NCBI GenBank assembly: GCA_001797675.1
Contig: MGQB01000001.1
Coordinates: 321,531-385,530 of the forward strand
Length of the DNA: 64,000 nucleotides
Reading direction: 5' to 3'
Source of the DNA: Deltaproteobacteria bacterium RBG_13_43_22
GTDB lineage: Bacteria > Desulfobacterota > RBG-13-43-22
Position 1 is the first letter of the stretch, and each line of letters begins with the position of its first letter. The position numbers were made by a program, and so were the translations under genes. Below are positions 22,113 through 58,082 of this stretch, in pieces. The notes beneath the pieces are model-generated. The model searched no databases. It was not told where the DNA came from and saw nothing but the letters and a program-made list of their open reading frames with translations.

Positions 22113-22634
22113 ATGATTTTATCCGGATTGGAAATTTGTTCAAAAATCGGCAAAGAAATTATTATTGACCCCTTTGACCGGGCCAAAGTCAATCCGAACA
22201 GCTACAACCTGTCCTTACATAATGAATTGATCACCTATACCGATTTTCCTTTGGATATGAAAAGAGAGAATCCTTTTACCGAGATCACCATACCGGAAGA
22301 TGGATTAGTGTTGGTGCCTAATCGTTTATATCTGGGAAGGACCGTGGAATATACGGAAACCCACGGTTATGTCCCCATGTTGGAAGGTCGATCTTCCATT
22401 GGGCGGCTCGGTATTTTTGTGCACGTTACCGCCGGATTCGGCGATGTCGGATTTAAAGGGTATTGGACCCTGGAAATTTTTTGCGTTCAACCGGTCCGAA
22501 TCTATACGGGGGTCGAGGTCTGCCAGATTTATTACCACACCATCGAAGGGCCGTATGAACCCTATTCAAGCCGGAAGTACCAGAACAACCGGGGCATTCA
22601 ACCCAGTTTTCTGTTTAAGGATTTTAAAAAATAG
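22113..22634 (+). CDS. dcd: dCTP deaminase
   Basis: 173 aa protein with C-terminal ICQIYYHTIEG...YSSRKYQNNRGIQPS typical of Dcd. Confidence 0.9.
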   Translation: MILSGLEICSKIGKEIIIDPFDRAKVNPNSYNLSLHNELITYTDFPLDMKRENPFTEITIPEDGLVLVPNRLYLGRTVEYTETHGYVPMLEGRSSIGRLGIFVHVTAGFGDVGFKGYWTLEIFCVQPVRIYTGVEVCQIYYHTIEGPYEPYSSRKYQNNRGIQPSFLFKDFKK

Positions 22635-22661
22635 GATCAAACCGGTCAAAAGGATATTTCA

Positions 22662-22716
22662 AATGTGATTAGAATTCAATTTAAAGGCCCAAAGCTTGCT
22701 GCCCAGGAAGTTACTT
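22662..22716 (-). pseudogene. 3'-terminal remnant (last ~17 codons) of a gtrA-like gene
   Basis: Reverse strand reads LSNFLGSKLWAFKLNSNHI*. This matches the C-terminus of the intact GtrA-like gene at 25790..26263 and is part of the 22517..22716 duplicated junction. Confidence 0.5.
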
Positions 22717-23400
22717 AATAAATGCGGTCTATAGGATGCAGAGGGAGCAGTTCGTCCAAACTTTGGAAGTCTGCCTCTTCTTTTCCCCTTATCCCCTTCT
22801 ATTTGTAAAGTCCAGACCTGCAAAGTCCTATTTTTCTCCTTGACCTTGCTTTTTTCTTTCTTTATATTCTTTCCATCAAAAAGCAAATTCTATCAAATCA
22901 AATATCGGAACGTACGATTCTTCCAAAAAAATTATAGAAAAATCAGATTGTTTCACATTAATCGGAAAAGATTCCAATGCCTGACAGGAAATCCTGCTGC
23001 TAAAAGAGGAATTCCCGGTTCCGGCGCTCATCCCTATTCCTATTTTATTGCAATTATTACTTAAAGTTATGATCAAGCAGGCAATTGGCTGTCAACGTTT
23101 TTATCATTGGGTGAACCCGTTCCGCATTCCGGGTTTAAACTGAAAAAACCCTGAGATAGGAGGAGACCATATGTTCGACCTGATGTCATGGAAAAAAAGA
23201 GACCCCAGAGCCTCGCCCGTTTTCGGGGGGAACTCGACAACCGGTTCAATTAAGAGGACCGATAATCATTACAGCAAGAAGATTTATCGATTGAGCTCCG
23301 GCTTAAATCCGATTTTTACCAGACGAGAGGTATAAATCTCGACGGGAAAGAGGTGACAGCCGGCAGGTGATCATCAACCATTTTGCAAAGGAGGATTAAA

Positions 23401-25155
23401 ATGGCAGAGACCAAACCTCAACCCACCTCAGACGACATCGTTGTCGACCAAGCTAAGGGAGACATTTCCGATTTGTGGAAAAAAGAGGACTACTGGGCCA
23501 TATGGCTCGGTTTTCTAATTCTGGCTGTGGGTCTTTTGATTTTTCTTCCGCGGCCGCCTGCAAAAATGGATGAGCAGTTCGCCAAATACAATGCCGCCAT
23601 GAAAGAGGAAGCGGCTAAAGCCCCTTTTAAAACCGTCGCTTGGCATGAAGCTTCCATGGCTAAAAAAAAGATTCGGGTCAGCAACGAAGGGTATGCAAAA
23701 AACATTAAAAATTTTCTGGCTGCGCCGGATCGATGGAAAGCCAACCCCGTCGATTCTCTGTATCGGAGCAAGGAAGCGGCCGATGCCATGAACGCCAAGG
23801 CGTTGCCCGGTTTTGAAAAAACAAAGGCAGCGGCAGGGGCGGCCCTTGCGTCGGCAAAAGCGGCTGAAAAGGATGCTGCAGATGCAGGTTTCAAAGACAA
23901 TGATCGAAATGAGAAGGCGAAGGAAAGCATTGCCGGATGGTTGAAAGCCGATCAGGCAGCTTCCAAAGCCAAGGCCAAAACAGCGAACAAGCCTTACAAC
24001 CGGATTCCGTATCTTATCGGCATTTCGATTATACTGGCGGTGCTGTTCGGCATCGGGAGTTCCATCATGGGAAATTCCTTTACAGCGTTCGTGAAAGGCT
24101 TCTTCTTTGTTTTCTTTCTGGCTGTTTTGGCCTACATGGCGGAAATGCAGGAAACTATCCGGTACTACGGGTTCGGGTTTCCGCTATGGGCCATCGTCTT
24201 CGGAATGCTGATCAGCAATACCATCGGTACGCCTAAATGGATCAAACCCGCCGTACAGACCGAATACTACATCAAAACCGGTCTGGTCCTGCTGGGGGCG
24301 GAGGTTCTATTCGGAAAAATTCTCGACATCGGCATCCCGGGCATCTTCGTGGCCTGGGTGGTCACCCCTATCGTGCTGATCTGCACATACTGGTTCGGGC
24401 AGCGGGTGTTGAATTTCCCGTCAAAGACGTTGAATATCACCATTTCCGCCGATATGTCGGTCTGCGGGGTGTCGGCAGCCATCGCCACAGCATCCGCTTG
24501 CCGGGCCAAAAAGGAAGAGTTGACCCTGGCCATCGGCCTTTCCATGGTGTTCACAGCCATTATGATGGTGGCCATGCCGGCGTTTATAAAGGCCGTGGGC
24601 ATGAATCACGTTTTGGGCGGAGCCTGGATGGGAGGCACCATCGATTCCACCGGGGCGGTGGCCGCGGCAGGGGCTTTCTTGAGCGACCGGGCACTCTATG
24701 TAGCGGCCACAGTGAAAATGATCCAGAATATTCTCATCGGCATCATCGCATTCGGTGTGGCGGTGTACTGGTGCGCTCGCGTGGAGTGTGCGCCGGGCCA
24801 GCAGGTGAGATGGATGGAGATCTGGTATCGTTTTCCAAAGTTCGTTCTCGGTTTTATAGCGGCCTCGATCATCTTCTCCCTGATCGACGGGGCTATGGCA
24901 AAAGATGCCGCTGCTGCGGTGCTGGATCAGGGTGTGCTGCGCGGTTTCAGCCGGCTGCTGAGGGAATGGTTCTTTGCGCTGGCTTTTACCTCCATCGGCC
25001 TTGCCACCAATTTCAGGGAGCTGGCCAAATATTTTAAAGGGGGCAAGCCGCTCATCCTTTATGTCTGCGGCCAGTCTTTCAACCTGATCCTGACGTTGCT
25101 GGTGGCCTATATCATGTTTTTTATCGTATTTCCTGAGATTACCTCGAGAATCTAA
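23401..25155 (+). CDS. Membrane protein: N-terminal TM plus Ala/Lys-rich extracytoplasmic domain fused to a YeiH/UPF0324 (putative sulfate exporter family) 10-TM domain
   Basis: The ATG at 23401 is preceded by AGGAGG. The C-terminal ~380 aa carry the YeiH-type SVCGVSAAIATASA motif and multiple TM helices. The ORF track's TTG start at 23383 is an upstream extension. Confidence 0.65.
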   Translation: MAETKPQPTSDDIVVDQAKGDISDLWKKEDYWAIWLGFLILAVGLLIFLPRPPAKMDEQFAKYNAAMKEEAAKAPFKTVAWHEASMAKKKIRVSNEGYAKNIKNFLAAPDRWKANPVDSLYRSKEAADAMNAKALPGFEKTKAAAGAALASAKAAEKDAADAGFKDNDRNEKAKESIAGWLKADQAASKAKAKTANKPYNRIPYLIGISIILAVLFGIGSSIMGNSFTAFVKGFFFVFFLAVLAYMAEMQETIRYYGFGFPLWAIVFGMLISNTIGTPKWIKPAVQTEYYIKTGLVLLGAEVLFGKILDIGIPGIFVAWVVTPIVLICTYWFGQRVLNFPSKTLNITISADMSVCGVSAAIATASACRAKKEELTLAIGLSMVFTAIMMVAMPAFIKAVGMNHVLGGAWMGGTIDSTGAVAAAGAFLSDRALYVAATVKMIQNILIGIIAFGVAVYWCARVECAPGQQVRWMEIWYRFPKFVLGFIAASIIFSLIDGAMAKDAAAAVLDQGVLRGFSRLLREWFFALAFTSIGLATNFRELAKYFKGGKPLILYVCGQSFNLILTLLVAYIMFFIVFPEITSRI

Positions 25156-25476
25156 ATGCAAAATACAGATCGACAACCGGACGGGCCCGCGGGCCCGTCC
25201 GCAAAGCTTAAATCCTGGCTTTACTTGCTCATCGGAGTCGCTATTCTGTGGGTGTTCATGCAGTGGGTGGGACCACTTATTTTCCAACTGCCCGGGTTTT
25301 CATCCATGGCGCGGTTGATCAAGGAACAAAACATCCACACCACGGGGTTCTTCTATACCGATATCGAAGAGTTTGCCCTTGCGGAATCGGTTATCAGGGA
25401 CCGGTTGGCCTATGCGCCTCAGATGGAGTCTCCGGCGGGAATTAGGGTGGAAGCCTTTGATAAACAAACCCCTTAA
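25156..25476 (+). CDS. Small membrane protein, translationally coupled to the YeiH-like gene
   Basis: The ATG directly abuts the upstream TAA (TAAATG). One predicted TM helix (LYLLIGVAILWVFMQWVGPLIF). Confidence 0.35.
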   Translation: MQNTDRQPDGPAGPSAKLKSWLYLLIGVAILWVFMQWVGPLIFQLPGFSSMARLIKEQNIHTTGFFYTDIEEFALAESVIRDRLAYAPQMESPAGIRVEAFDKQTP

Positions 25477-25533
25477 GGCCCTTAGCGGCGCACACGGCAT
25501 TTGCTGGTTTTGGTTCAGAGATGACGAGTGGAA

Positions 25534-25745
25534 GTCTGCCAGATTTATTACCACACCATCGAAGGGCCGTATGAACCCTATTGAAGCTCCCTGCACCAAG
25601 GTGCAGGGAATCTTCCAGGCAAGGAAAGGGTTTATTTGTTGTAGTTCGCTCGCTAACCCACGCAGCAAGCTGCGGGGAATGCGCTCGCTATTCCTGTTCA
25701 AGCCGGAAGTACCAGAACAACCGGGGCATTCAACCCAGTCTTCTG
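25534..25745 (+). pseudogene. Duplicated 3' fragment of dcd (last ~25 codons) interrupted by a dispersed repeat element
   Basis: 25534-25582 and 25700-25745 are near-identical to dcd 22517-22612. The 115-bp element is inserted between ...GAACCCTATT and CAAGCCGG. Confidence 0.55.
25581..25700 (+). repeat. Dual-hairpin dispersed repeat element, copy A (short form, ~118 bp)
   Basis: TTGAAGCTCCCTGCACCAAGGTGCAGGG...CCCACGCAGCAAGCTGCGGGG...CCTGTTCA. Near-identical copies at 30137, 35231 and 47551. Confidence 0.7.
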
Positions 25746-25789
25746 AATAAAGATTTAAAAAATAGGGTCTGACCGGGCAAAAGGATATT

Positions 25790-26263
25790 TTAATTATGAT
25801 TAGAATTCAATTTAAAGGCCCAGAGCTTGCTGCCCAGGAAGTTGCTTAAGGTGGTTATAAAAATGGCGGCCAATTGGGCGATGATCTTGTGCCAATGCTG
25901 AAGATCGACCAGAAACCATAAGACGGCTATATTGATTCCGTAGCTGACCAGGGTAACCATCGCATATTTCAGATATTGGTCGCGGATGGCCTTGATTCCC
26001 TGCTCGTGGGTTTTAAAAGTCCAGCGCAGATTCAGGAAAAAATTGCTGGACATGGCCGTTAAAAAAGAGAAGGTGGCTGCCAGCAGATAATGAACGTTCA
26101 GCAGGTAAATGGAGCCTGAATAAACGGCCAGATTAACCAATACCCCGCTGCTGCCCACCAGGGCGAAGCGGACAAACTGATTTCCGGTGTGGCCGCTGGT
26201 AATCAGACTATTGACCATATAGGCCCAATTGAGTTTCTCGGCATATCCCTTGAAGCGACTCAA
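25790..26263 (-). CDS. GtrA-family polysaccharide-synthesis membrane protein
   Basis: 157 aa protein with 4 TM helices and a GtrA-like N-terminus (VRFALVGSSGVLVNLAVY). Confidence 0.7.
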   Translation of the reverse strand: MSRFKGYAEKLNWAYMVNSLITSGHTGNQFVRFALVGSSGVLVNLAVYSGSIYLLNVHYLLAATFSFLTAMSSNFFLNLRWTFKTHEQGIKAIRDQYLKYAMVTLVSYGINIAVLWFLVDLQHWHKIIAQLAAIFITTLSNFLGSKLWAFKLNSNHN

Positions 26264-29997: not shown

Positions 29998-30136
29998 AAA
30001 AAATCTTTCAATTAAGATTTGAAGTTATATCTGACTCAATCCCTGGTCCGAGTTGCGGGCAGTTAAAAAAGGACTTGGTTTCTTAACCCGTAATGCGTAA
30101 CCCGTAACAAGGTTTTTCATCTATTTTGTTATGCTT

Positions 30137-30258
30137 ATTGAAGCTCCCTGCACCAAGGTGCAGGGAATCTTCCAGGCAAGGAAAGGGTTTATTTGTTGTA
30201 GTTCGCTCGCTAACCCACGCAGCAAACTGCGGGGAATGCGCTCGCTATTCCTGTTCAA
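30137..30258 (+). repeat. Dual-hairpin dispersed repeat element, copy B (short form)
   Basis: About 97% identical to copy A. Intergenic between the methyltransferase and wzt. Confidence 0.7.
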
Positions 30259-35052: not shown

Positions 35053-35230
35053 GTTTGATCCTCCCCAAAGAATTATTCTAAATTAAATTAGGAAATATAA
35101 CTCATTCTGAGGGAAATGTAAATTGTTTTCTTCAAAAACCTATCCGCTTTAAATTGAATAACTTCCCTTGCAAAGATATCTTCTTTTTTCTATAATTTAT
35201 GGTAAAAGAGCTTTATCTATCAAAAATCAA

Positions 35231-35398
35231 TTGAAGCTCCCTGCACCAAGACTTCGGCGAGCTCAGTCGAGTCGGTGCAGGGAATCTTCCAGGCAAGGAA
35301 AAGGTCTATTTATTGTATTTCGCTCGCTAACCCACGCAGCAAGACTTCGACGAGCTCAGTCGAGACGCTGCGGGGAATGCGCTCGCTACACCTGTTCA
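35231..35398 (+). repeat. Dual-hairpin dispersed repeat element, copy C (long form, ~168 bp: both hairpin loops carry the same ~21-nt extension ACTTCGRCGAGCTCAGTCGAG)
   Basis: Same ends and spacer as copies A, B and D, but each hairpin loop is extended by an almost identical 21-nt palindromic insert. Confidence 0.7.
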
Positions 35399-35419
35399 GC
35401 AAAGGCCCAATAAAAGCCG

Positions 35420-36949
35420 ATGATCGCTAAAATTTTCAGTAGTGCCATCTCAGGGATTGATGCCTATATCGTTCAGGTTGAAGTCGATATTGCCAGGGGG
35501 TTACCGGCCTTTTCCACGGTTGGATTGCCGGAAGGGGCTGTCCGGGAAAGTAAAGATCGGGTCAAATCGGCCATTAAGAATTCAGGTTTTGAATTCCCCA
35601 GCCACCGAATTACCGTTAATCTGGCTCCGGCCGATATAAAAAAAGAAGGGTCGGCCTTTGACCTTCCTATAGCCATAGGTATTCTTACGGCTGAAGATTT
35701 AATTTCTTCCACCATCGTGTCGTCATACCTTATTTTAGGGGAGCTTTCTCTGAATGGGGAAATTAAGCCGATTCGAGGCACATTGCCCACCGCTTTATCG
35801 GTTAAGGATAACGGCTTTCGTGGACTGATTGTCCCCGAGGCCAATGCTCTTGAGGCCTCCGTGGTAGAAGGGATTGAGATCATTCCGGCGCAAACGCTTG
35901 GACAGGTGACTGAATTTCTTAGAGGCCTCTCACCGATCCAACCATTAAACCAGGAACCAAAACGGCCCTTTTCTCTTCTTCAGGATTATCCTTTTGATTT
36001 CAATGAGGTGAAAGGCCAGGAACAGGTCAAACGGGCACTGGAAATTGCAGCCGCCGGAGGTCATAACATCATTATGGTCGGACCTCCCGGTTCCGGAAAA
36101 ACCATGCTGGCCCAAAGGCTGCCCTCTATTTTGCCCGACCTGACTTTCGAAGAGGCCTTGGAAACCTCGAAAATTTACAGTGTCATCGGTCTGATGCCGA
36201 GAGATCAGGCCCTGATTACTTCCCGGCCCTTTCGATCCCCTCATCATACGGTTTCCGACGCCGGTCTGATTGGAGGCGGGCAAGTCCCCCGCCCCGGTGA
36301 AGTCAGCCTGGCCCATAACGGGGTTCTGTTTTTGGATGAATTACCTGAATTCAAAAAAAATGTCTTGGAGGTTCTTCGTCAGCCCCTCGAAGACGGTCGG
36401 GTGACCATTTCCCGGGCCATCACTTCCCTGACCTATCCGGCCCGCTTTATGCTGGTGGCGGCCATGAATCCCTGCCCCTGCGGGTTTCTCTCGGATCCCC
36501 AGCGGGAATGTCATTGCACCTATCCGCAGATCCAGCGCTATAAATCAAAAATATCCGGTCCCCTGTTGGACCGTATCGATCTCCACGTAGAGGTCCCTTC
36601 GGTGAAATTCAAAGAACTGGCTGGCCAGTCCGATGGAGAATCCTCGAACACCATCCGGGAACGGGTCAAAGCCGCCCGGGAAAGGCAAAAAACCCGCTTT
36701 CACAGCAAAACCCTTTTTTGTAACGCCCAGATGGGACCGAGGCTGATCAAAAAATATTGCACCCTGTCTCCGGACTCCCAAAACCTTCTGGAACAGGCCA
36801 TGGAATATCTGGGATTAAGTGCCCGGGCCTATCATCGCATATTAAAGATCTCCCGAACCATTGCGGATTTGGAGAATAGCGAGGATATTGCTCCTCATCA
36901 TATCTCGGAAGCCATCCAATACCGGAATTTGGACCGCCGTCTCCTTTAA
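35420..36949 (+). CDS. comM: YifB/ComM family Mg-chelatase-like AAA+ ATPase
   Basis: 509 aa protein with Lon-like N-terminus, Walker A (GPPGSGKTM) and a C-terminal Mg-chelatase ChlI-like domain. Confidence 0.85.
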
Positions 36950-37057
36950 TCAATGCCTCCACAACCTCCTAAATACCGGTCTCATCCCAAACCAAAAAAA
37001 TCGATAAACTATTTGGTCTGGTTTTTCGTCTTCCTGATGGCCTTTATGTTGATCACC
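36936..37057 (+). repeat. Direct repeat DR1: duplicated copy of the comM 3' end, mrcA promoter/RBS and mrcA codons 1-36
   Basis: About 92% identical over ~122 bp to 38651..38771, including the mrcA ATG context (ATGCCTCCACAA...CTATTTGGTCTGGTTTTTCGTCTT). Flanks the macB-like insertion. Confidence 0.7.
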
Positions 37058-37139
37058 ACCAATACCCCCCCGATAATCCATTTCAAGGATGGGGTGGTTA
37101 TGGATCCGGCCCGAGGGACCGGATAATAGGGTAAGTCCT

Positions 37140-38366
37140 ATGAAACCCATTTCAAGTCTCAAGGTGGCCCTTCGTGCCTTGCGGATCAACAAGATGCGCT
37201 CTTTTTTGACCATGCTGGGCATTATCATCGGTGTCGGAGCGGTCATTGTCATGGTGGCCTTAGGTTCCGGAGCCAGGGAAATGATCGCCCAGGTGATCGC
37301 CAATATGGGGTCGAATCTGCTTATTGTGGTTCCCGGTGCGACTACGGCCGGCGGGGCCCGTATGGGAGAAGGCAGCGCCCCCACTCTGACTTCCGATGAC
37401 GCCAAAGCCATCAAGGAGGAATGCCCGGCCGTCAAGACCGTAGCCGCCTTTTGGGGCGGGGTTACCCAAGTGGTTTATGGCAATCAAAATTGGAATACCA
37501 GTGTTTCCGGGATGACACCGTCTCATTTTGAAATCCGGGATTGGCCCATTGCCTCCGGCCGGAATTTTTCCGACCAGGAAGTCTACGGTGCGGTAAAAGT
37601 AGCCATAATCGGGAAATCAGTGGTTGAAAACCTCTTCGGATCGGAGGACCCGCTCGGGCAGATCATCCGGATTAAAAAAATACCTTTTACCGTTATCGGT
37701 GTCCTTTCTTCAAAAGGACAAACCCCGATGGGAACAGACCAGGACGATGTCGTTTATATCCCCTTGACCACCTCGCAAAAAAGAATCTTCGGAAGCCAGC
37801 TTCCCAACCGGGTTCGGCTGATCATGGTTCAGGCTAAAGATATCAGCCTGATGAATGATGCCGAAAACCAGGTCAACGACCTTTTAACGGAGAGACATCA
37901 TGTTCAGAATGGACAACTGGTTGATTTCACCATCCGGAACCTGACCGAACTCCTGGCCACGGCTGAAAAATCAGCCGGGGTTATGTCCCTTCTGCTGGGT
38001 TCTATCGCCCTGGTTTCCCTGCTGGTGGGAGGCATCGGGATTATGAATATCATGCTGGTTTCGGTTACGGAGCGCACCCGTGAAATCGGCATCCGCATGG
38101 CCGTGGGCGCCCGTGGAATCGATATCCTCCTTCAATTTCTGACCGAATCGGTGGTCATAAGCCTGGTGGGAGGACTGATCGGGATCGCCTTAGGGGCCCT
38201 GGGTGCCCAGGTGATCTCAAAATTCACCGGATGGAACGTCTTTATTTCAGTTTGGGCCCTGTTGATCTCTTTTTCTTTTGCCGCCGCCGTGGGTATCTTT
38301 TTCGGCTATTACCCGGCCCTCAAGGCCTCCCGCCTGAATCCGATCGATGCCTTGAGGTATGAATAG
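37140..38366 (+). CDS. MacB-like ABC transporter permease (MacB periplasmic domain plus FtsX), no adjacent ATPase
   Basis: 409 aa from the ATG at 37140 (MKPISSLKVALRALRINKMRSFLTMLGIIIGV). Four TM helices and a C-terminal FtsX motif region. The ORF track's 37089 start is an upstream extension. Confidence 0.75.
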   Translation: MKPISSLKVALRALRINKMRSFLTMLGIIIGVGAVIVMVALGSGAREMIAQVIANMGSNLLIVVPGATTAGGARMGEGSAPTLTSDDAKAIKEECPAVKTVAAFWGGVTQVVYGNQNWNTSVSGMTPSHFEIRDWPIASGRNFSDQEVYGAVKVAIIGKSVVENLFGSEDPLGQIIRIKKIPFTVIGVLSSKGQTPMGTDQDDVVYIPLTTSQKRIFGSQLPNRVRLIMVQAKDISLMNDAENQVNDLLTERHHVQNGQLVDFTIRNLTELLATAEKSAGVMSLLLGSIALVSLLVGGIGIMNIMLVSVTERTREIGIRMAVGARGIDILLQFLTESVVISLVGGLIGIALGALGAQVISKFTGWNVFISVWALLISFSFAAAVGIFFGYYPALKASRLNPIDALRYE

Positions 38367-38650
38367 GATCGACAGGACACCGAAGTCCAGATCTTTCTTT
38401 TCTCCCCGTTGTTCAATGAAAAGTAAAGCCTCATCCCTTTTCTGACCACTTAGCTTATCTCCATCCGCCGCACCGGCTGCGTCTGACAGCACCCTCCCGC
38501 AGTGGCTCTTTTATGCCCCTCCTTTAGAGTCGTTCCCAAAATTCGGCGGACCCTGATTATTCTTTCTCCAAGGCCTTCGTTTGTGGTATCATTCGGCTCA
38601 TATTCAAGAAACTCGATGACCTTGGGAATATAATACTGAAATTTAGATCG

Positions 38651-38771
38651 GCGTCTACTTTAATCAATGCCTCCACAAACCTCTAAATACCGGTCTCATC
38701 CCAAACCAAAAAAATCGATAAACTATTTGGTCTGGTTTTTCGTCTTTCTGATGGCTTTTATGCTGTTCACC
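38651..38771 (+). repeat. Direct repeat DR2 (native mrcA promoter and 5' end)
   Basis: Partner of DR1. Here it continues into the intact mrcA ORF. Confidence 0.7.
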
Positions 38772-40925
38772 TCTTTTCTGGCCGGCTTTTATTATCTGTC
38801 CCTGCTGTATCAATTACCGAACATAAAAACCCTGAACGATTACAATCCCCCACTGGCCACCCGGATTTTAGCCGCCGATGGAACGGTAATCGGATACCTT
38901 TTTAAAGAAAAAAGGACCCTGGTTCCCCTATCCGAATTACCCCCCCGTTTGATCCAGGCCTTTGTCGCATCGGAGGATGCCCGGTTTTTCAAGCATCGCG
39001 GTTTGGATTTTTGGGGTATCATTAGGGCCCTGTGGAAAAATATCTGGGCCGGCGAGATTGTCCAGGGCGGAAGCACCATAACCCAACAGGTTACCAAATC
39101 TCTGCTTCTTTCCCCTGAAAAAACCCTTTCCAGAAAGATCAAAGAGGCCGTCCTGGCCTATCGTTTGGACCAGAATCTTTCCAAAGCGGATATTCTCTAT
39201 ATCTATCTGAATCAGATTTATCTGGGGCATGGGGCTTATGGGGTGGAATCAGCGGCCCAGACCTATTTCGGGAAAAAAGCCCAGGACCTCACCCTGACCG
39301 AAAGTGCCCTGCTGGCCGGTCTTCCTCAAGCCCCCAGCCGGTATTCGCCCTTGCTGAATCCCCAAAAGGCCTTGGAAAGGCAGCGATATGTCCTCAAGAG
39401 AATGACCGAAGAGGGTTATATTTCCGAATCCGAGGCCCAAGCCGCTGCTGAAACCCCAATCTTTTATGCCAACATTCAAGACCCTAATTTGACTTTAGCC
39501 CCCCATTTTACAGATCTGGTTCGAAAATATTTATTTCAGACCTGGGGTTCGGAATTTGTATTGAAGGCCGGACTGGTGGTACAAACCACTTTGGACCCCT
39601 CTTTCCAGAAGGCAGCCCTGGAAGCCGTGCTCAAGGGAACACAGGCCGTTCAAAGTCGACATATATACACCAAAACCTTCGAAAAGGTTCCTCTGGAAAA
39701 AATACACGAATATTGTCCTAAACTGGACCAGCCCATCCCTAAAGAAAACAAGAAACGGCCTGAATTTTCCACCGGGGTTGTCGTTCAAGTGGATCCTATC
39801 GCCCAAACCGCTAAAGTTTGTATGGGCCAGGAGTGGGCGGTCTTGCCCCTGTCCAAGCCGGTTGTTTCTGCCTCCCAGATCAAAGGACAAAAGGATGATG
39901 AAGAACTGGCTAAAAATGAAACCTCTCCCCCGCCTTTAATGATTGGAGACGTCGTTCGTCTGCGTTGGGATCCGGTCCGCTACTCGCTGACGATCTTAGA
40001 TCAGAACCAGGTGGAAGCCGCCCTTCTTTGTGTCGAAGCCCGAACCGGATCAGTAAAGGCTCTGGTCGGGGGGAAAAATTACAACCAGACCGAATTTAAT
40101 CGAGCGGTGCAATCCAAACGTCAGCCGGGTTCCTCTTTTAAGCCGATTATTTATGCTGCCGCCATTGAAAAAGGGCTTACTCCGGCCATGATCGTTATGG
40201 ACAGCCCCCTCTATTTCGGAGGACCTCCTGCCTGGGTCCCGCAGAATTTCGACCATAAGTTTCTGGGACCAACCACCTTAAGAACCGGTCTAATCCAGTC
40301 TAGAAATATTGTTTCCATTAAGATCCTCCAACGAATCGGAATTCAATATGCCATTAACTTCGCCCAGCGGCTCGGCATTTCCTCCCCCTTATATCCCAAT
40401 CTATCCCTGGCCCTGGGTTCTTCCGGGATATCCTTATGGGAGATGGTTACGGCTTATAGCTGTTTCCCCAACTTGGGACAACGAGTACCCCCATATTATA
40501 TTCAACAAATCACCGATCGATATAAGCGAACCATCTATGCCTATCCTCCTAAAGCAGAACAGGTCATGCAAATTAATACCGCCTACACGATGAATCAGCT
40601 TCTTGAAGCCGTCGTCAAAGAAGGGACCGGCTGGAAGTTAAAGTCCCTCGGAAAACCCGTTGCCGGCAAGACCGGTACCACCAACGATTTTCGAGATGCC
40701 TGGTTTATCGGCTTCACACCCCAATATACGGCCGGAGTATGGGTAGGGATTGATGATCTAACCCCTTTAGGATCTGGGGAAACCGGAGCCCAGGCGGCCA
40801 GTCCAATCATTTTGGATTTTTTTCAGAAAGCCCTGTCCCAAACGGCGCCACAAGAATTTCCGGTTCCAAAAATCCAAGAAAAAGAGTCAGATTCATTTCA
40901 GGACGTGCAGGAAGAGGCTGAATAA
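38667..40925 (+). CDS. mrcA: Penicillin-binding protein 1A (bifunctional transglycosylase/transpeptidase)
   Basis: GT51 motifs (EDARFFKHRG, GGSTITQQVTK), a transpeptidase SxxK motif (SSFKP) and a KTG motif (KTGTT). Confidence 0.9.
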   Translation: MPPQTSKYRSHPKPKKSINYLVWFFVFLMAFMLFTSFLAGFYYLSLLYQLPNIKTLNDYNPPLATRILAADGTVIGYLFKEKRTLVPLSELPPRLIQAFVASEDARFFKHRGLDFWGIIRALWKNIWAGEIVQGGSTITQQVTKSLLLSPEKTLSRKIKEAVLAYRLDQNLSKADILYIYLNQIYLGHGAYGVESAAQTYFGKKAQDLTLTESALLAGLPQAPSRYSPLLNPQKALERQRYVLKRMTEEGYISESEAQAAAETPIFYANIQDPNLTLAPHFTDLVRKYLFQTWGSEFVLKAGLVVQTTLDPSFQKAALEAVLKGTQAVQSRHIYTKTFEKVPLEKIHEYCPKLDQPIPKENKKRPEFSTGVVVQVDPIAQTAKVCMGQEWAVLPLSKPVVSASQIKGQKDDEELAKNETSPPPLMIGDVVRLRWDPVRYSLTILDQNQVEAALLCVEARTGSVKALVGGKNYNQTEFNRAVQSKRQPGSSFKPIIYAAAIEKGLTPAMIVMDSPLYFGGPPAWVPQNFDHKFLGPTTLRTGLIQSRNIVSIKILQRIGIQYAINFAQRLGISSPLYPNLSLALGSSGISLWEMVTAYSCFPNLGQRVPPYYIQQITDRYKRTIYAYPPKAEQVMQINTAYTMNQLLEAVVKEGTGWKLKSLGKPVAGKTGTTNDFRDAWFIGFTPQYTAGVWVGIDDLTPLGSGETGAQAASPIILDFFQKALSQTAPQEFPVPKIQEKESDSFQDVQEEAE

Positions 40926-40933
40926 AAAATGAA

Positions 40934-40975
40934 AAGCCCCTTGACCACCATTGCTGATGGCCAAGGGGCTTTTCG
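40934..40975 (+). terminator. Rho-independent terminator (likely bidirectional) between convergent mrcA and the CBS-domain gene
   Basis: AAGCCCCTTG...CAAGGGGCTTTTC: a 10-bp GC-rich stem followed by a T-run, with an A-run on the other side. Confidence 0.6.
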
Positions 40976-47449: not shown

Positions 47450-47550
47450 GATCCCCTCACACGATTCTATAGGTTGGATTCAAAGATCCTTTTTAAACCC
47501 TCATGCCCGCCTGGACGGGTGCTACAAAACACAATGATTAAATTTTAGGA

Positions 47551-47670
47551 TTGAAGCTCCCTGCACCAAGGTGCAGGGAATCTTCCAGGCAAGGAAAGGG
47601 GTTATTTGTTGTAGTTCGCTCGCTAACCCACGCAGCAAGCTGCGGGGAATGCGCTCGCTATTCCTGTTCA
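47551..47670 (+). repeat. Dual-hairpin dispersed repeat element, copy D (short form)
   Basis: About 98% identical to copy A. Intergenic between hom and the aminotransferase. Confidence 0.7.
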
Positions 47671-47777
47671 AGGGACCACGGGGTCAAGGACCGCGGGGCG
47701 GAGTGAAAGACATGGAAGTTAAAACCCTCGAACCCTTGAATCCTGGAACCCTTGAACCCTATTTTGAATTTTAGCTA

Positions 47778-53527: not shown

Positions 53528-54709
53528 TTATTTTCTTTTTACAATCCTGAGCCCGTCCTTGATCTGATTGGAGGGATGGAGAAAGACCTCCTCCCCTTCC
53601 TTCAATCCTTTTACGATCTCCGCCTCAAAGGTTCCCTGTCGGCCCACTTCGACCACACGCCGCCTGGCCCGGCCCTCCTGGTTAACGAAAACCGCCCAAT
53701 TCTGTCCAATCCTGAAAAGTGCACTGGCGGGAATTTTCAGGACCTCTTCTCCCTTCCAGATAACGATCCGGGCCTCGACCCGAAAACCGTCTCCCAGGGA
53801 AGCCGGCGGGTCCACAAAGTCGGCAATGACATTGACCCGTTTTTCTTCCACACCCAAAGCCGACACCTTGGTAAACCCCCAGGGTTCCACCAGCCTCACC
53901 CTGGCCTCAAGCGGTTGATTCCCTCCCCAGTTGTCCAGCAAAACCGTATGGCCCGGTTTGACCTTAACGGCCTCCGTAGTCAGCAGGTCGATCACCACTT
54001 CGAGTTGAGAAGGATTCCCAAGCACCAACAGCGGTGTTCCGGGTGCGACGACCTGCTCGTTTTTTTCCAGGACTTTGAGCACCCGACCGGACACAGGAGA
54101 ACGAACAGCGATGGTTTGAGGCTCTCCTTTTACTTCTTCCAGGGCCAGCAGACCGGCCTGGATGGCCTTAACCTCAAAGGCCGCGGCCTGGGCCTTCATT
54201 TGGACGGCACGGAGTTCCTCATTTCGCAGCTTTTCCGCATCCCTGGAGAATTCCATTTCCTGCTGGGTGGCCAAACCGTTTTTTTGCAGCTGCTCCATCC
54301 GCTGTCTCTCCCGCCGGGACTTTTCAACATTAATCCGGGTCTGCTCGATCAGGACCTCCGTTTCCCGGTGCAAGGCTTCGGCGGCCTGGAGCCTGGCCCG
54401 AATCTCGGTCGATTCCCGCCTTCCCAGGGGCAGGGGGTGGATCACGGCGATCGATTGATTGAATCCCACGGGATCCCCTTCTTTAAGTCGGATACGGGTC
54501 AATCGACCGGCTACAGGAGAAGCAACGATAAAGCGATCCTTGGCCCGGGTTTCACCTTCCTCATCCACCGTGACCATCAAAGGGCCTTTCTGGGCCCGTT
54601 GCAGATCCACTTCGACCGGAGAAGGAAGAAAGACCCAAATGATAACGCCTAATAAAATGACGGCCGAAATGATATAGAGTAGTCCCTTTTTTCTGTTTTT
54701 TTTCATCAT
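53528..54709 (-). CDS. HlyD-family periplasmic adaptor (DevB/MacA-like) of the ABC efflux system
   Basis: Start moved to the ATGATG at 54709 (MMKKNRKKGLLYIISAVILLGVIIW) with a GAGG ribosome-binding site. The upstream ORF-track extension runs through a structured repeat. Coiled-coil and beta-barrel adaptor domains are present. Confidence 0.75.
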   Translation of the reverse strand: MMKKNRKKGLLYIISAVILLGVIIWVFLPSPVEVDLQRAQKGPLMVTVDEEGETRAKDRFIVASPVAGRLTRIRLKEGDPVGFNQSIAVIHPLPLGRRESTEIRARLQAAEALHRETEVLIEQTRINVEKSRRERQRMEQLQKNGLATQQEMEFSRDAEKLRNEELRAVQMKAQAAAFEVKAIQAGLLALEEVKGEPQTIAVRSPVSGRVLKVLEKNEQVVAPGTPLLVLGNPSQLEVVIDLLTTEAVKVKPGHTVLLDNWGGNQPLEARVRLVEPWGFTKVSALGVEEKRVNVIADFVDPPASLGDGFRVEARIVIWKGEEVLKIPASALFRIGQNWAVFVNQEGRARRRVVEVGRQGTFEAEIVKGLKEGEEVFLHPSNQIKDGLRIVKRK

Positions 54710-54727
54710 AGATGACCTCACATTGTT

Positions 54728-54925
54728 CACCGCAAAGACGCAAAGGGCGCAAAGGGCGCAAAGAAGAACCTTTATCAATTGCCGGTGAGAGGCCGGCAAT
54801 CGATAAACTACGCTACCCTCCGGGTAATTATTCGGCCAGAAGCCAAAGTTGCTTTGTTCAATCCCGAATTTCACGGGATTGAACAAAAAAATGGTTTTCT
54901 TAGCGTTCTTTGCGTCTTTGCGGTG
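54728..54925. repeat. ~200 bp inverted-repeat-bounded structured element between the permease and adaptor genes
   Basis: Terminal inverted repeats CACCGCAAAGACGCAAAG...(GGGCGCAAAG x2) and CTTTGCGTCTTTGCGGTG. Two internal perfect hairpins (TTGCCGG..CCGGCAA; GTTCAATCCCG..CGGGATTGAAC). Confidence 0.45.
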
Positions 54926-54998
54926 AAAGATTTTTACCAATAAAAAATTAAAAACTATCAACCAGTTGACGTGATTGAACCAATTTCCAAATCCGAAA

Positions 54999-57362
54999 TT
55001 ACTCCCTGGTCTTCAACACGGCGATGAGATCCAAGTGTTTTAACCGTCGGCGAACGAAGAGACCGGAAATAAAAGCAGCCAGGACAGTGACGCCCAATGA
55101 ATAAATTACACTTTTCCCGGTCAGAACCAGCGGGAAACGGTAAAGCTCCGTTTCCAGGGCCTTGGACATGAGCCAGCAAAAATAATATCCGATGATCAGC
55201 CCGACGGGAAGGGCCGTTAAGGTGAGGAAGGCCTGTTCCCCCAGGAGAATACGGGCGATCTCCTGCTCGGTGAACCCCAGGACCCTGAGGGAGGCCATTT
55301 CATGACCCCGTTCCGAAAGAGAGATCCGGGCGCTGTTATAAACCAGTCCGAAGGCAATGACCGAGGCGAAAATGATCAAGACGAACGTTGAAATATACAT
55401 GCTCTGGGCAATGGTGTCCCGAAAGCCCTGAACCATGTGTTTACGGAAGGCTACCCCGGCTACGGCCGGAACCTTTTTGATTTTGGTAAAAAAGTCCGGT
55501 TCCTGAAGGGGGTCCACGGTTAAAAAAGCCCCGGAAACAGCCGGGCCTTCATGCATATGTTTATTTAAAGACCGGAGGTCCATATAAGCGGAGATCCCCA
55601 GCAGTTCATCAATAATTCCGGCAACGGGTATGGTCAGGACCGGTCGTTTCCCCTCCAGGACTTCGACCGACAGTAAATATCCGGGCCTGACCTGGAGTGA
55701 ATCGGCCAACTGTTTGGTCAGCACCAGACCCTCTGATGGAAGGTTCACCGGCCGCAGGTCCTTGTCCAGAAGCTGTCTCAATCGGCCGGTGGGTGATATC
55801 CCCTGGATGCCGATCCGCCTGCTGCGATGTTCGAAGCGCAGGCGGGCGGGAACCAGACGAAAGGACTCCACACTGCGCACTCCGGGCAAACGGGTGGTGT
55901 CATAACGGGCACCCGAACCGACAGGATGGTTAAAAATCAGCATGGCATCCTCCCGCTGGATGGTCTCAAACTGGACCCGTATCAGGTACTCAACGGAATC
56001 GAAGCTGTATCGCCCCACCAGGAGAATGGCCACGGCAAAGGCGATACCGAGCAGGGTAAAACCGGCCTTGGCCCGGTTTCGCCCCAGGTTGCGGATAATC
56101 ATGCGCAACGCCGGCGAGATAAACCGCTGGAGACCGATTCGTTCAATCAATCCCGGACGAAAACGGGCCGGGGGTTCAGGGCGCATAGCCTCGGCCGGAG
56201 GCAGGGAAACGGCCTTCCGGACCGAAAGTAGGGCCCCCAACCCGGCGGCCGCAAAGCTGATGAAAATGACCAGCACCAGCAAGTCCGGACGAATTCGGGA
56301 ATAAAAAACCGGGAAACGATAAAACTGCTGATAGATTTCGGCGATCAAACTCCCCAGCCAGAGCCCCAGAACGGTGCCCGGTAAGGACCCGGCGAAAATC
56401 ACCACCAGGGCAAACTTCAGGTAGTGAAAACCAATGGCGCTGCTGCTGTAACCGAAAGCCTTCAACAGGGCGATCTGGTTGCGCTGCAGGATGATCAGGC
56501 GGGACAGAACGATGTGAATCAGGAAAACGGCGACGCCCAAAAAGATGGAAGGGACGATCATACCGGAAACCCGGTTCTGGGCGATCTCATCGGACAGGAA
56601 ACGGTTGGAAAGCTGGTCGCTCCGTCCATAGGCCCCCAGTCCCCCATAGGGTTCGAGAACACGATCCAGCCGGGCAATGACCTCGGCTTCCTGGGTTCCG
56701 GGGGCCAGGGTCAAGGACAGATCGTTAAAGGCCCCTTTCATTTGAAAGGCCGGCCCCATGGCCTCCCGGCTCATCCACAAGACCCCGAACCGTTTGCTGT
56801 CCGGCAGTATGGTGCCGCTGGGAATTTCAATGACATATTCCGGGGAAAGGGCCACCCCGACAATGAGCAGGTGCTCCCAGCGGCCGTTGATAATCGCCCC
56901 CAGCGTGTTCCCGGGTTTGAGCTGATTGGCCTGGGCGAAGGCCTCACTGATGATGACCTCGTTTCTTCTTCCGGGTTCGATGGTTCGGCCTTGCCGCAAG
57001 GCCAGGTCGTTGAGTAAAGGTTTGCCTGATCCCGGGATAGAAACCAGCCGGCCCGTAGCCGGTTCCTTCAAACCGGGTACGTCCAGGATCACTTCAAAGA
57101 CAATCCGCGTTTGAAGGGCCGTGACGCCGGGGATGGCGGCGATAGACGAAGTCAAGGATTCAGGTGCCCGTTTAAGCTGGGCAAAGACCTCGGCGAAACG
57201 GTATTCGCTGTAATAGGCCGACTGGGAAACCACCAGGGACTGAAAGGTGTTGTGCATGGTTACAAAGGCCGAAAGACCGCAAAGCACCACCAGGGCCACG
57301 GCTATGGCCTGTCCCCGGTAGTGGATGAGGTCGCGGAGAAGTTTTCGGTCAAGGGAGGTCAT
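54999..57362 (-). CDS. ABC efflux permease with duplicated FtsX domains (DevC/MacB-like, 787 aa)
   Basis: Two MacB-periplasmic-plus-FtsX 4-TM modules. ABC ATPase upstream and HlyD adaptor downstream. Confidence 0.8.
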   Translation of the reverse strand: MTSLDRKLLRDLIHYRGQAIAVALVVLCGLSAFVTMHNTFQSLVVSQSAYYSEYRFAEVFAQLKRAPESLTSSIAAIPGVTALQTRIVFEVILDVPGLKEPATGRLVSIPGSGKPLLNDLALRQGRTIEPGRRNEVIISEAFAQANQLKPGNTLGAIINGRWEHLLIVGVALSPEYVIEIPSGTILPDSKRFGVLWMSREAMGPAFQMKGAFNDLSLTLAPGTQEAEVIARLDRVLEPYGGLGAYGRSDQLSNRFLSDEIAQNRVSGMIVPSIFLGVAVFLIHIVLSRLIILQRNQIALLKAFGYSSSAIGFHYLKFALVVIFAGSLPGTVLGLWLGSLIAEIYQQFYRFPVFYSRIRPDLLVLVIFISFAAAGLGALLSVRKAVSLPPAEAMRPEPPARFRPGLIERIGLQRFISPALRMIIRNLGRNRAKAGFTLLGIAFAVAILLVGRYSFDSVEYLIRVQFETIQREDAMLIFNHPVGSGARYDTTRLPGVRSVESFRLVPARLRFEHRSRRIGIQGISPTGRLRQLLDKDLRPVNLPSEGLVLTKQLADSLQVRPGYLLSVEVLEGKRPVLTIPVAGIIDELLGISAYMDLRSLNKHMHEGPAVSGAFLTVDPLQEPDFFTKIKKVPAVAGVAFRKHMVQGFRDTIAQSMYISTFVLIIFASVIAFGLVYNSARISLSERGHEMASLRVLGFTEQEIARILLGEQAFLTLTALPVGLIIGYYFCWLMSKALETELYRFPLVLTGKSVIYSLGVTVLAAFISGLFVRRRLKHLDLIAVLKTRE

Positions 57363-57368
57363 GCGGTC

Positions 57369-58082
57369 CTACCAACTTAAATCTTTGGGAGAGGCTTTTG
57401 TCAGATTTTGCTGCAGATCAATAATCCTGCCGCTGCTGATGCGGATGACCCGGTCGGCCATGGAAGCGATGGCCGCATTGTGGGTAATAACGGCCGTGGT
57501 GGTGCCCAGCTGCTCATTGACCTGCTGAAGGGCCTCCAAAACCCGGATGCCGGTGGTGATGTCCAGGGCGCCGGTGGGTTCATCACACAGCAGGACATCT
57601 GGGCGTTTGACAATCGCCCGGGCAATGGCGATACGCTGTTGCTCGCCTCCGGAAAGCTGGGCCGGGAAATGGTGGAGCCGGTCCCCCAGGTCGACTAAAT
57701 TCAGGGCCTCTGCTGGCTCCATGGGATTTTCGGCAATCTCGGCCACCAGGGCCACATTTTCCAAAGCGGTGAGGCTGGGAATCAGGTTGTAGAATTGGAA
57801 GACGAAGCCCACATGTTCGCGCCTGAATCGGGTCAGCTCTTTATCGTCGTATCGGGAAAGGTTGTGATCGAAATAAAAAACCTCGCCGGCAGTAGGCACA
57901 TCCAGGCCGCCCAGGATGTTGAGCAGGGTGGACTTACCGCTTCCGGAAGGCCCCAGAAGAACCGCGAATTCCCCTTCAAAGAGATCCAGATCCACGCCGT
58001 TTAAGGCGCGCACCTCCACCTCACCCACCTGATAGAACTTGGTGACTCCATGGATATGAAAGACGGCCTTGGGGTTTTTCAC
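57369..58082 (-). CDS. ABC transporter ATP-binding protein (MacB/LolD-type)
   Basis: Walker A (GPSGSGKST), signature (LSGGEQQR) and Walker B (LLCDEPT). Confidence 0.9.

Follow-up and report, generated by a model that had tools for sequence, protein, structure and literature searches.

The stretch of DNA analyzed here, hereafter the window, spans 64,000 nucleotides of a metagenome-assembled genome (MAG) of Deltaproteobacteria bacterium RBG_13_43_22. It contains an intact comM gene (35420–36949, + strand), which encodes a Mg-chelatase-like AAA+ protein (Pfam PF01078/PF13541/PF13335, Mg_chelatase/ChlI), and an intact mrcA gene (38667–40925, + strand), which encodes a class A penicillin-binding protein 1A with Pfam Transgly and Transpeptidase domains (NCBI record A2Y79_13780, Deltaproteobacteria bacterium RBG_13_43_22). 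Between the two lie a short chimeric ORF, an intact permease gene, a spacer, and a fragment of a helix-turn-helix gene, and the whole is bracketed by a long direct repeat.

The repeat is a 140-nt ungapped match between 36918–37057 and 38632–38771 (13 mismatches, 90.7% identity; self-blastn E=1e-49), each copy comprising roughly 32 nt of the comM 3′ end, a TAA-TCA-ATG junction, and mrcA codons 1–35. The preliminary description had placed this duplication at 36936–37057 and 38651–38771 with about 92% identity; that interval does hold 9 mismatches in 122 nt (92.6%), and the true extent is slightly longer. In the upstream copy a functional comM tail and TAA-TCA spacer precede a non-functional set of mrcA codons 1–35. 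In the downstream copy a decayed comM tail (38632–38663, with two in-frame stops) and the spacer precede the functional mrcA start. Two runs are perfectly identical between the copies, one of 21 nt starting at 36944 and one of 64 nt starting at 36969. The repeat structure is genuine and no assembly artefact, because the window and an independently assembled JGI contig (L002) agree at every position across 36800–38900 (100% identity). Mismatches fall at 6 of 35 positions in the comM-tail part and at 7 of 105 in the mrcA part; a greater divergence of the former was left unused (Fisher p=0.09), and a donor from another lineage for the comM remnant, to which an excess of third-codon-position changes might have pointed, was dropped given the small sample (hand count, p~0.04).

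Gene fragments and an orphan permease between the repeats

The islet enclosed by the repeats has its left junction at 37057/37058, with about 4 nt of microhomology (CACC) as judged against the proxy donors L083 and L084 only. A chimeric ORF of 57 codons (36953–37126, + strand) runs across this junction. Its first part, mrcA codons 1–35, encodes a basic tail and a membrane anchor, and the reading frame then continues into the final 22 codons of an ABC ATPase gene. Its second part, which includes TPPIIHFKDGVVMD, aligns to the ATPase C-termini of L083 and L084 (86% over 36 nt against L083), and the ATPase 3′ remnant, of the MacB/LolD type, occupies 37058–37139 (+ strand) together with a short spacer preceding the permease. 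The fusion of an mrcA start to a sequence that stops after about 60 codons had been recognized earlier, but this sequence, then called unrelated, is an in-frame MacB-type ATPase C-terminus. Because of that identity the insert is evidently an operon fragment and not a designed single-gene cassette, as had been proposed.

The permease itself (37140–38366, + strand) is an intact MacB-type (type VII ABC) protein of 408 aa with full-length matches to both the MacB periplasmic core (MacB_PCD, PF12704, E=1.9e-56) and FtsX (PF02687, E=7.4e-20). Its ATG lies 13 nt past the stop of the 57-codon ORF and 82 nt past the end of the repeat, in agreement with the roughly 80 bp first estimated. Close homologues are all 408–410 aa long and share the N-terminus MKPISS; the stored gene call for P0001 is a 425-aa version. 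Against operon-linked relatives the permease has a dN/dS of 0.09–0.11. Relatives occur natively in the order HisKA-adaptor-ATPase-permease, with an adaptor in every native context examined. Here, as the preliminary description had noted, the permease has no ATPase partner: no ATPase gene adjoins it except the 22-codon stump, and no MacA/HlyD-like adaptor lies between comM and mrcA.

A full adaptor-ATPase-permease operon is present elsewhere in the same MAG (locus prefix A2Y79; OGP51011/51012, the ATPase being OGP51012), the assignment of both loci to one genome being that of metagenomic binning, and another intact ATPase is encoded in the window at 57369–58082. The orphan and the resident permease are 93–95% identical in their cytoplasm-facing parts and 80% identical in the periplasmic domain. 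The closest relative of the orphan, P0002 (JGI 3300075153, 93%), sits in a different context, next to an esterase gene, so the permease may still travel as part of a whole mobile unit. A scan of metagenome contigs with the permease returned relatives of at most 64% identity and did not recover the 93% relative. The tetranucleotide compositions of the insert, the contig with the paralogous operon, and the relatives are not separable, so composition neither points to a distant foreign source nor proves a common genome.

Downstream of the permease, a 153-nt spacer (38367–38519) has no similarity above shuffled controls to the compared loci or to L175, a more distant species considered below. The last 112 nt of the insert (38520–38631, − strand) are a pseudogene, the 5′ fragment of an XRE-type helix-turn-helix gene, and form a block conserved with L175, where the corresponding ORF matches HTH_3 at E=8e-4, under Pfam's cut-off. 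Together these make up a 265-nt tail whose only similarity among the compared loci is to L175. Its 59-codon minus-strand ORF has no match among 1.84 billion representatives, and by comparison with L175 only its first ~25 codons are true helix-turn-helix sequence. Viral contigs contain nothing that matches the conserved block. The spacer and tail region has no Rfam match (20–42 kb of the window searched) and no excess of structure over shuffles (z=+1.3).

The junction in related genomes

L170 and L003 are the nearest relatives among those compared at the DNA level, and both keep the gene order moaC-rpoZ-comM-mrcA-cbs with nothing inserted. Their empty junctions consist of a comM stop, 3 nt, and the mrcA ATG (TAA-GTA-ATG in L003, whose comM protein is 90% identical to that of the window, and TAG-AAA-ATG in L170). 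In the more distant L009, comM also abuts mrcA directly. Since comM abuts mrcA in L170 and L003, the 1.57-kb segment between the repeats is, on this comparative evidence, a lineage-restricted insertion. The permease thus lies inside an insertion, as first proposed, and the comM-macB-mrcA arrangement with both repeats is not universal among relatives.

The right end has a different distribution. L175 (JGI 3300027896), which branches outside the group formed by the window and L170 in a PBP1A tree, matches window positions 38520–38666 at 118 of 147 positions (80%), with a core of 41 of 42, although control intergenic DNA in the same comparison is only 51–52% identical and dS is 0.87–0.96. The match extends into the comM remnant, where the derived changes ATA, TAA (a stop), xGA, and CGG are common to both. 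The L175 contig reaches 722 nt upstream of mrcA, and neither permease nor comM is found in those 722 nt. Because both the helix-turn-helix fragment and the decayed comM tail also stand upstream of mrcA in L175, the right junction must either predate the left one or have arisen independently of it. These shared features do not fit one recent insertion of a cassette with duplication of its target, as put forward in the preliminary description. The two mrcA heads in the window are 93% identical, whereas window and L175 are about 70% identical there; if the duplication is old, either gene conversion must have acted on the repeats or the islet must have re-integrated recently. The similarity of the block itself could stem from recent horizontal exchange instead of promoter function.

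No terminator was found from comM to the end of mrcA, and the first convincing one 3′ of comM is a strong, bidirectional terminator-like hairpin after mrcA (40931–40974; inverted repeat I4, a 20-pair stem followed by a T run). The insert holds no good consensus promoter. The duplicated stretch was said to copy the mrcA promoter, but it is made up of comM codons, 3 nt of spacer, and the start of mrcA, and contains no promoter. A candidate extended −10 element for mrcA, TGGTATCAT (38584–38592, + strand), was read in the conserved right-end block. It is more likely that this block, rather than the duplication, supplies the mrcA promoter, and mrcA, now 1.7 kb away from comM, is probably driven from it. 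comM, the 57-codon leader ORF, and the permease would probably form a single transcript, in which the leader, opening with the copied mrcA start 3 nt past the comM stop and ending 13 nt short of the permease ATG, may keep the permease translated. Of the suggestion that the permease uses duplicated mrcA expression signals, the part that concerns translation would hold and the part that concerns the promoter, absent from the repeat, does not.

Origin of the islet and a second repeat-flanked locus

The window holds a second locus of the same repeat-insert-repeat layout, as the preliminary description had pointed out. Copy A (22512–22720) consists of the intact 3′ end of dcd, intergenic DNA, and a fragment of a gtrA-like 3′ end; in copy B (25528–25851) a 116-nt repeat element splits the fragment of the dcd 3′ end, and intergenic DNA and an intact gtrA-like 3′ terminus follow. 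The copies are 91–95% identical over about 207 nt. They enclose an insert (22721–25527, + strand) with roughly 660 nt of non-coding DNA followed by two ORFs, a YeiH-like Cons_hypoth698 gene (23401–25155) and a coupled ORF of 106 aa (25156–25476). No clean empty site for this insert was seen among the Dcd relatives compared, because the region 3′ of dcd differs between genomes. The closest Dcd relative is P0127 (JGI 3300075153).

A shared mechanism of single-gene acquisition, as earlier proposed for the two loci, is possible, but they have no common end motif, no inverted repeat, and no repeat similarity between them, and the YeiH insert has two ORFs. No integrase or transposase occurs among the genes called between roughly 15 and 45 kb of the window. 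A bolder reading is that this lineage repeatedly lodges small DNA segments at gene–gene junctions with a 140–200-bp duplicate of the junction, the segments acting as mobile islets that need no recombinase and that, once so flanked, would leave as circles and enter vacant junctions in related species through host recombination alone. We regard this as improbable; it draws on two cases in 64 kb with neither recombinase nor end signals. Were it true, it would constitute a homology-based route of single-gene transfer that spares tightly packed or essential flanking genes.

The reading that we favor, and hold at about even confidence, is that the comM|mrcA locus is an islet lacking a recombinase, built as a patchwork in more than one step within a tight junction. 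Both flanking genes are intact because the 140-bp junction duplicate brackets the islet. In an older step, foreign DNA would have been inserted or the region rearranged, with duplication of the junction, so that a cut-off helix-turn-helix gene and a defunct comM tail came to stand directly 5′ of mrcA, the right end that L175 also has. In one or more later steps the interior would have been remodeled through illegitimate, microhomology-level joins, the visible outcome being that mrcA codon 35 runs straight into the final 22 codons of a MacB-type ATPase. This fusion is most likely a deletion scar, left when the adaptor gene and the bulk of the ATPase gene were lost and the permease was orphaned. 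If active, the permease would have to use the ATPase, and perhaps the adaptor, of the paralogous operon elsewhere in the genome. The identical runs of 64 and 21 nt could let host recombination excise and re-integrate the islet, and this would account for the empty sites in close relatives. On this reading the locus looks like an ordinary multi-step genome scar and not a new kind of gene cassette.

Several other origins deserve consideration. The islet could be the remnant of a decayed site-specific integrative element, such as a prophage, whose attL and attR are the repeats and whose integrase and most cargo have been deleted; the element would have carried its own copy of the comM end and mrcA start. 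Long imperfect repeats are known from elements that rebuild the end of their target gene, such as e14 in icd. Presence and absence of the islet among relatives, the same right end in two species, and the XRE/CI-like helix-turn-helix remnant at that end (a weak match; Phage_CI_repr E=0.1) all agree with such an origin. Yet no integrase, excisionase, or transposase lies in or near the islet, its ends cut genes (the ATPase at its 3′ end, the helix-turn-helix gene at its 5′ end), and the conserved block is unmatched in viral contigs. Moreover, the mrcA head brought by the element would need to be 93% identical to the host's fast-evolving version, and the repeat at the YeiH locus takes in the ends of a convergent gene pair, more than an att site would need. 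We consider this origin unlikely.

Somewhat less probable in our estimation is that the islet is itself mobile without a recombinase, spreading horizontally as a circle with one repeat copy that enters relatives at their empty comM|mrcA junctions, through homologous recombination of the host or RecA-independent recombination between repeats (Campbell-type). The identical runs kept in the repeats would serve such re-entry. The patchy distribution, in which a closer relative is empty and a more distant one occupied, is what such spread would leave, as is a block far more alike between window and L175 than neutral DNA. The microcin H47 island (PMC3191183, PMC5426353) offers a precedent established by experiment. 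But both assemblies of the population carry the islet, and no circular junction or polymorphism was observed in these consensus contigs; mrcA next to the block shows no unusual similarity between window and L175, and the islet contents differ between the two species.

A single recent event, essentially the cassette model of the preliminary description, seems more doubtful still. A fragment consisting of the ATPase tail, the permease, and 265 nt would have been taken up at a staggered break, or through template switching during replication, producing the 140-bp target-site duplication directly. Such an event would explain the layout that leaves both flanking genes whole, the empty sites in close relatives, the ~4 nt of microhomology at the left junction, and a repeat divergence of 9%, far under the dS of 0.7–1.0 to the relatives with empty sites; the YeiH locus offers a parallel with the same layout and similar repeat divergence. 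It is strongly weakened by the right junction, the adjacent 112 nt, and the four derived comM-remnant substitutions common to L175, since a recent remnant of the window's own comM cannot match L175 unless L175 imported the segment from the window lineage. Retroposition of an mRNA fragment was also considered and rejected, as neither a terminator nor a tail signature is present at the 3′ end. That the structure is a false repeat or chimeric join has a negligible probability and is refuted for practical purposes, even though the source is a short-read metagenome assembly: the same structure occurs in two independent assemblies from different projects, the NCBI protein set of the MAG includes the same permease and PBP1A, and copies with 13 differences between them neither collapse nor chimerize in the manner of identical repeats.

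Known systems and wider meaning

Target duplications made by known bacterial transposons and insertion sequences are roughly 2–15 bp long. They likewise form direct target repeats around the insert; the repeats here measure 140 bp and, at the YeiH locus, about 207 bp. The genes called in the ~10 kb to each side of the islet include no transposase Pfam family, and for terminal inverted repeats its ends score no better than shuffled controls. Compared with integrase-type islands, the islet has the direct repeats and the empty sites (L003, L170) but no recombinase gene within it or among the genes listed for its neighbourhood. As for integron cassettes, the 3′ tail folds like its shuffles (z=+1.3), and neither significant inverted repeats nor an integrase were found.

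Campbell-type insertion-duplication leaves a homologous segment duplicated as direct repeats around an insert and preserves the flanking genes if the segment spans their junction. Its product has a layout identical to that of the islet, but it leaves unexplained how a natural circle came to hold exactly the 140-bp junction and an operon fragment, unless a repeat-flanked structure pre-existed. The model would therefore account for the spread of the islet and not for its origin.

The closest analogue is the microcin H47 island of Escherichia coli, a 13-kb unit of coherent function for which excision and integration have been shown experimentally (Azpiroz, Bascuas and Lavina 2011, PMC3191183; Azpiroz and Lavina 2017, PMC5426353). 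Relatives carry the island with both repeats, a partial island with the right repeat only, or an empty hybrid site, and recombination occurs inside the identity segments of the repeats. Like that island, the islet is small, is flanked by long imperfect repeats in direct orientation, encodes no recombinase, and has empty or partial sites as counterparts in relatives; the three H47 states mirror the window, L175, and L170/L003, respectively. The islet differs in being 1.6 kb of gene fragments plus one gene and in having repeats that duplicate two host gene ends, in contrast to the dispersed att sequence of H47.

MacAB-type tripartite (type VII ABC) efflux systems and LolCDE are treated in a review (PMC5985334). 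The islet permease shares the MacB periplasmic core and FtsX domains with MacAB-type systems, and its relatives sit in adaptor-ATPase-permease operons, whereas it stands alone beside a 22-codon ATPase stump. One may speculate, by analogy with LolC/LolE, that the orphan and resident permeases form a mixed pair.

At a modest practical level, the analysis is of use for annotating the permease start codon, the chimeric ORF, and the two pseudogene fragments. More generally, the locus shows that an islet flanked by repeats may combine parts of differing age, a reason for caution with simple target-site-duplication readings. If our reading is right, the locus would be a natural example of a tightly coupled gene pair, with a 3-nt spacer and a cell-wall synthase gene, that tolerates an insertion: the duplicated junction would spare the end of each gene, the copied start codon would serve translation of the newcomer, and the insert would give mrcA a replacement promoter. 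It would also offer a testable case of recombinase-independent islet mobility in uncultured Thermodesulfobacteriota-like bacteria.

Insertion at the comM-mrcA junction

An ungapped direct repeat of 140 nt, with copies at 36918-37057 and 38632-38771 (13 mismatches, 90.7% identity, E=1e-49 in a self-blastn of the window), brackets an islet between comM (35420-36949) and mrcA (38667-40925; both assigned with Pfam). The repeat comprises the final ~32 nt of comM, the TAA-TCA-ATG junction and mrcA codons 1-35. A preliminary description had reported this duplication at about 92%; it is real, and within the narrower coordinates used there identity is 92.6%. The window belongs to ENA contig ERZ27256953:k141_5474365, from the MAG Deltaproteobacteria bacterium RBG_13_43_22. 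JGI contig 3300031949, from an independent assembly, agrees with it at 100% identity across 36800-38900, which rules out an assembly artefact.

Relatives were found by a ComM scan of species-representative genomes, followed by a PBP1A search. Two of them, L003 (ComM 90% identical) and L170 (PBP1A 82% identical), have the synteny of the window, moaC-rpoZ-comM-mrcA-cbs, with no gene separating comM from mrcA; their junctions read ...CTC TAA GTA ATG and ...CTT TAG AAA ATG, respectively. In a more distant relative, L009, comM likewise directly precedes mrcA. These empty junctions bear out the proposed insertion of a permease gene between comM and mrcA, and they indicate that the ancestral spacer was 3 nt and that 37058-38631 (1,574 nt) is additional DNA. 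The mrcA gene of L003 is broken into two reading frames around 10919-10928, the first stop falling at codon 504; a frameshift introduced in sequencing or assembling that MAG is a more probable cause than a true pseudogene.

Contents and expression of the islet

The islet carries an intact gene for a MacB-type permease (37140-38366, 408 aa). All close homologues are 408-410 aa long with the N-terminus MKPISS, so the 425-aa version annotated by ENA and JGI is overlong. Upstream, the copied mrcA start opens a 57-codon ORF whose tail (..TPPIIHFKDGVVMD..) matches, in native frame, the C-termini of ABC ATPases from related operons. For instance, the ATPase at locus L083 has the C-terminus ..RRKIHFKDGVVRQD.., and 36 nt are 86% identical to the ORF tail; what had been taken for unrelated sequence after the mrcA start is an in-frame ATPase remnant. 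In the related operons these ATPase genes immediately precede the permease gene, and all native contexts examined share the order sensor kinase, MacA-like adaptor, ATPase, permease; by this comparison, the left end of the islet interrupts an ATPase gene 22 codons short of its stop. The remnant is fused in frame to mrcA codon 35, with ~4 nt (CACC) common at the join as judged from proxy donors. On the 3' side of the permease, 153 nt have no detectable relatives in comparisons with other loci and with L175, a JGI contig from another species, and the following 112 nt are, on the minus strand, the 5' portion of an XRE-type helix-turn-helix gene.

A consensus scan, which returned 14 promoter sites against 6.4 expected, placed a promoter-like site at 35168-35196, upstream of comM, and detected no terminator from comM as far as the strong hairpin that follows mrcA (40931-40974). 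The chimeric ORF starts at the mrcA start position, 3 nt past the comM stop, and finishes 13 nt short of the permease ATG; at L083 and L084, where the operon is native, the stop codon of the ATPase gene adjoins or overlaps the start codon of the permease gene. Given this placement, the start copied from mrcA and the surviving ATPase stump would plausibly keep translation coupled into the permease. The idea that the permease uses duplicated mrcA expression signals may therefore hold for the start but not for a promoter, since the duplicated stretch is made of coding sequence and spacer and contains none. A weaker hybrid site, TTGATC-17-GATAAT, lies across the left junction at 37049-37077; the mrcA-head remnant provides its -35 and the ATPase remnant its -10. 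It might act as a fusion promoter for the permease or, equally, be a chance match.

The orphaned permease and its relatives

The permease has kept 408 codons without a stop or frameshift, while the 32-nt comM remnant has gained two stops. Its pairwise dN/dS against operon-linked relatives is 0.09-0.11, compared with 0.065-0.088 among those relatives; because most of the divergence (dS 0.8-1.0) is older than the insertion, this is weak evidence for function since then. The orphan and its closest relative, P0002 (93%), form their own branch, with nine common changes at otherwise conserved columns. P0002 comes from another metagenome (JGI 3300075153, 2,763-bp contig), where the gene 158 nt upstream of it encodes an alpha/beta-hydrolase (esterase) and no ATPase gene precedes it, and its sample also contains a Dcd 91% identical to that of the window. 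A close relative thus carries the orphan permease in another genomic context.

Another contig of the same MAG (locus-tag prefix A2Y79, as in the window) encodes a complete adaptor-ATPase-permease operon, OGP51011/OGP51012, which is found together with the window in both metagenomes and whose permease is 85% identical to the orphan. With region boundaries set by general MacB topology, identity between the two permeases is 93-95% in the parts that should face the ATPase and 80% in the periplasmic domain, so it is plausible that the orphan could borrow the resident ATPase. The window also contains a second type VII ABC-like set (53528-58082, minus strand). Its ATPase (57369-58082) shares 41% identity with the MacB-type ATPase of L084, its permease (54999-57362) is 787 aa long and has two FtsX domains, and its adaptor (53528-54961) belongs to the HlyD family.

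History of the islet

L175 (PBP1A 80% identical) falls outside the group of the window and the empty-site genome L170 in a PBP1A tree. Upstream of its mrcA lie a helix-turn-helix fragment and then a dead comM tail, as at the right end in the window. Window 38520-38666 and L175 577-722 match at 118 of 147 positions (80%); other intergenic DNA is 51-52% identical (two regions compared), and the dS values of mrcA and cbs are 0.96 and 0.87. Judged against functional comM tails, the two comM remnants have four derived changes in common (ATC->ATA, CAA->stop TAA, CGG->xGA, CGC->CGG), so both descend from one remnant. This sharing refutes a one-step model in which the right junction arose by recent duplication of the genome's own comM tail. 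The shared block is either under functional constraint or was exchanged between lineages after the genomes diverged. The helix-turn-helix ORF of L175 is longer but frameshifted (HTH_3 E=8e-4, under Pfam's cut-off), with part of a CCG-domain gene beyond it, and neither the permease nor comM occurs in the 722 nt available upstream of mrcA.

Within the shared block, 41 of 42 positions match in a core (38552-38592 vs L175 609-649). At the end of the most conserved part of the block stands TGGTATCAT (38584-38592), which has the form of an extended -10 motif and precedes the mrcA ATG by ~75 nt. By its consensus match it is proposed as the promoter now serving mrcA; the site is absent from the list of the consensus scan because its -35 is weak. 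The 42-nt core is a candidate promoter or operator made from the dead helix-turn-helix gene.

An old duplication of the junction sits in tension with the 93% identity of the two mrcA-head copies in the window, as the mrcA head is fast-evolving (its identity is about 70% with L175 and about 60% with L170). It would require gene conversion between the repeats or recent re-entry of the islet via the repeat, for either of which the identical runs of 64 and 21 nt kept by the copies would in principle suffice.

The preliminary description likened the islet to the YeiH locus, where ~207 nt (dcd 3' end, intergenic DNA, gtrA-like 3' end) are duplicated at 91-95% around a 2.8-kb insert, an arrangement unchanged in three more samples of the same population. 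The repeat-insert-repeat layout is indeed the same, but the YeiH insert has two ORFs and ~660 nt of non-coding DNA rather than a single gene, and the two loci share no end motif, terminal inverted repeat or repeat-to-repeat similarity. No recombinase gene lies within ~10 kb of either. Because gene content downstream of dcd varies among the relatives, they offer no clean empty site for the YeiH insert. From the common geometry, one process behind both loci is possible.

YeiH repeat copy B (25528-25851) was later invaded by a 116-nt repeat element. Three copies of this structured element, about 119-123 nt long and 98-99% identical, lie in intergenic or remnant DNA at 25579-25701 (inside copy B), 30136-30258 and 47549-47671, and run from TTGAAGC through two GC-rich hairpins to CTGTTCAA; a longer variant with expanded hairpin loops occupies 35243-35400, just upstream of comM. 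The element looks MITE- or REP-like. In the non-coding leader of the YeiH insert, 23172-23260 contains a short ORF starting MFDLMSWKKRDP.. and, in a shifted frame, ..LARFRGELDNRFN; this may be the 5' part of a small heat-shock (Hsp20-type) gene, broken by a frameshift, and in that case the YeiH insert too would bear a piece of a neighbouring donor gene. A perfect 24-nt palindrome (25178-25201) occurs close to where the 106-aa ORF coupled to the YeiH-like gene begins.

Among known systems, the best-documented analogue is the microcin H47 island of E. coli, which is small, has extensive imperfect direct repeats and no recombinase of its own, excises and integrates via identity segments of the repeats without RecA, and is found across genomes as full, partial (right repeat only) and empty hybrid-site states (PMC3191183, PMC5426353). 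Campbell-type insertion-duplication yields the same geometry and could account for the spread of an existing structure, but not for its origin. Integrase-type islands resemble the islet in their presence/absence pattern and in the helix-turn-helix remnant, but the islet lacks a recombinase and both its ends cut through genes. The target duplications of transposons are some tenfold shorter than these repeats, and the genes and ends required of a transposon are missing. We give recombinase-free mobile islets a low probability. The islet is real, lineage-restricted and repeat-flanked, with an orphaned MacB-type permease; it is a multi-step mosaic and not a cassette brought in by a dedicated mechanism.
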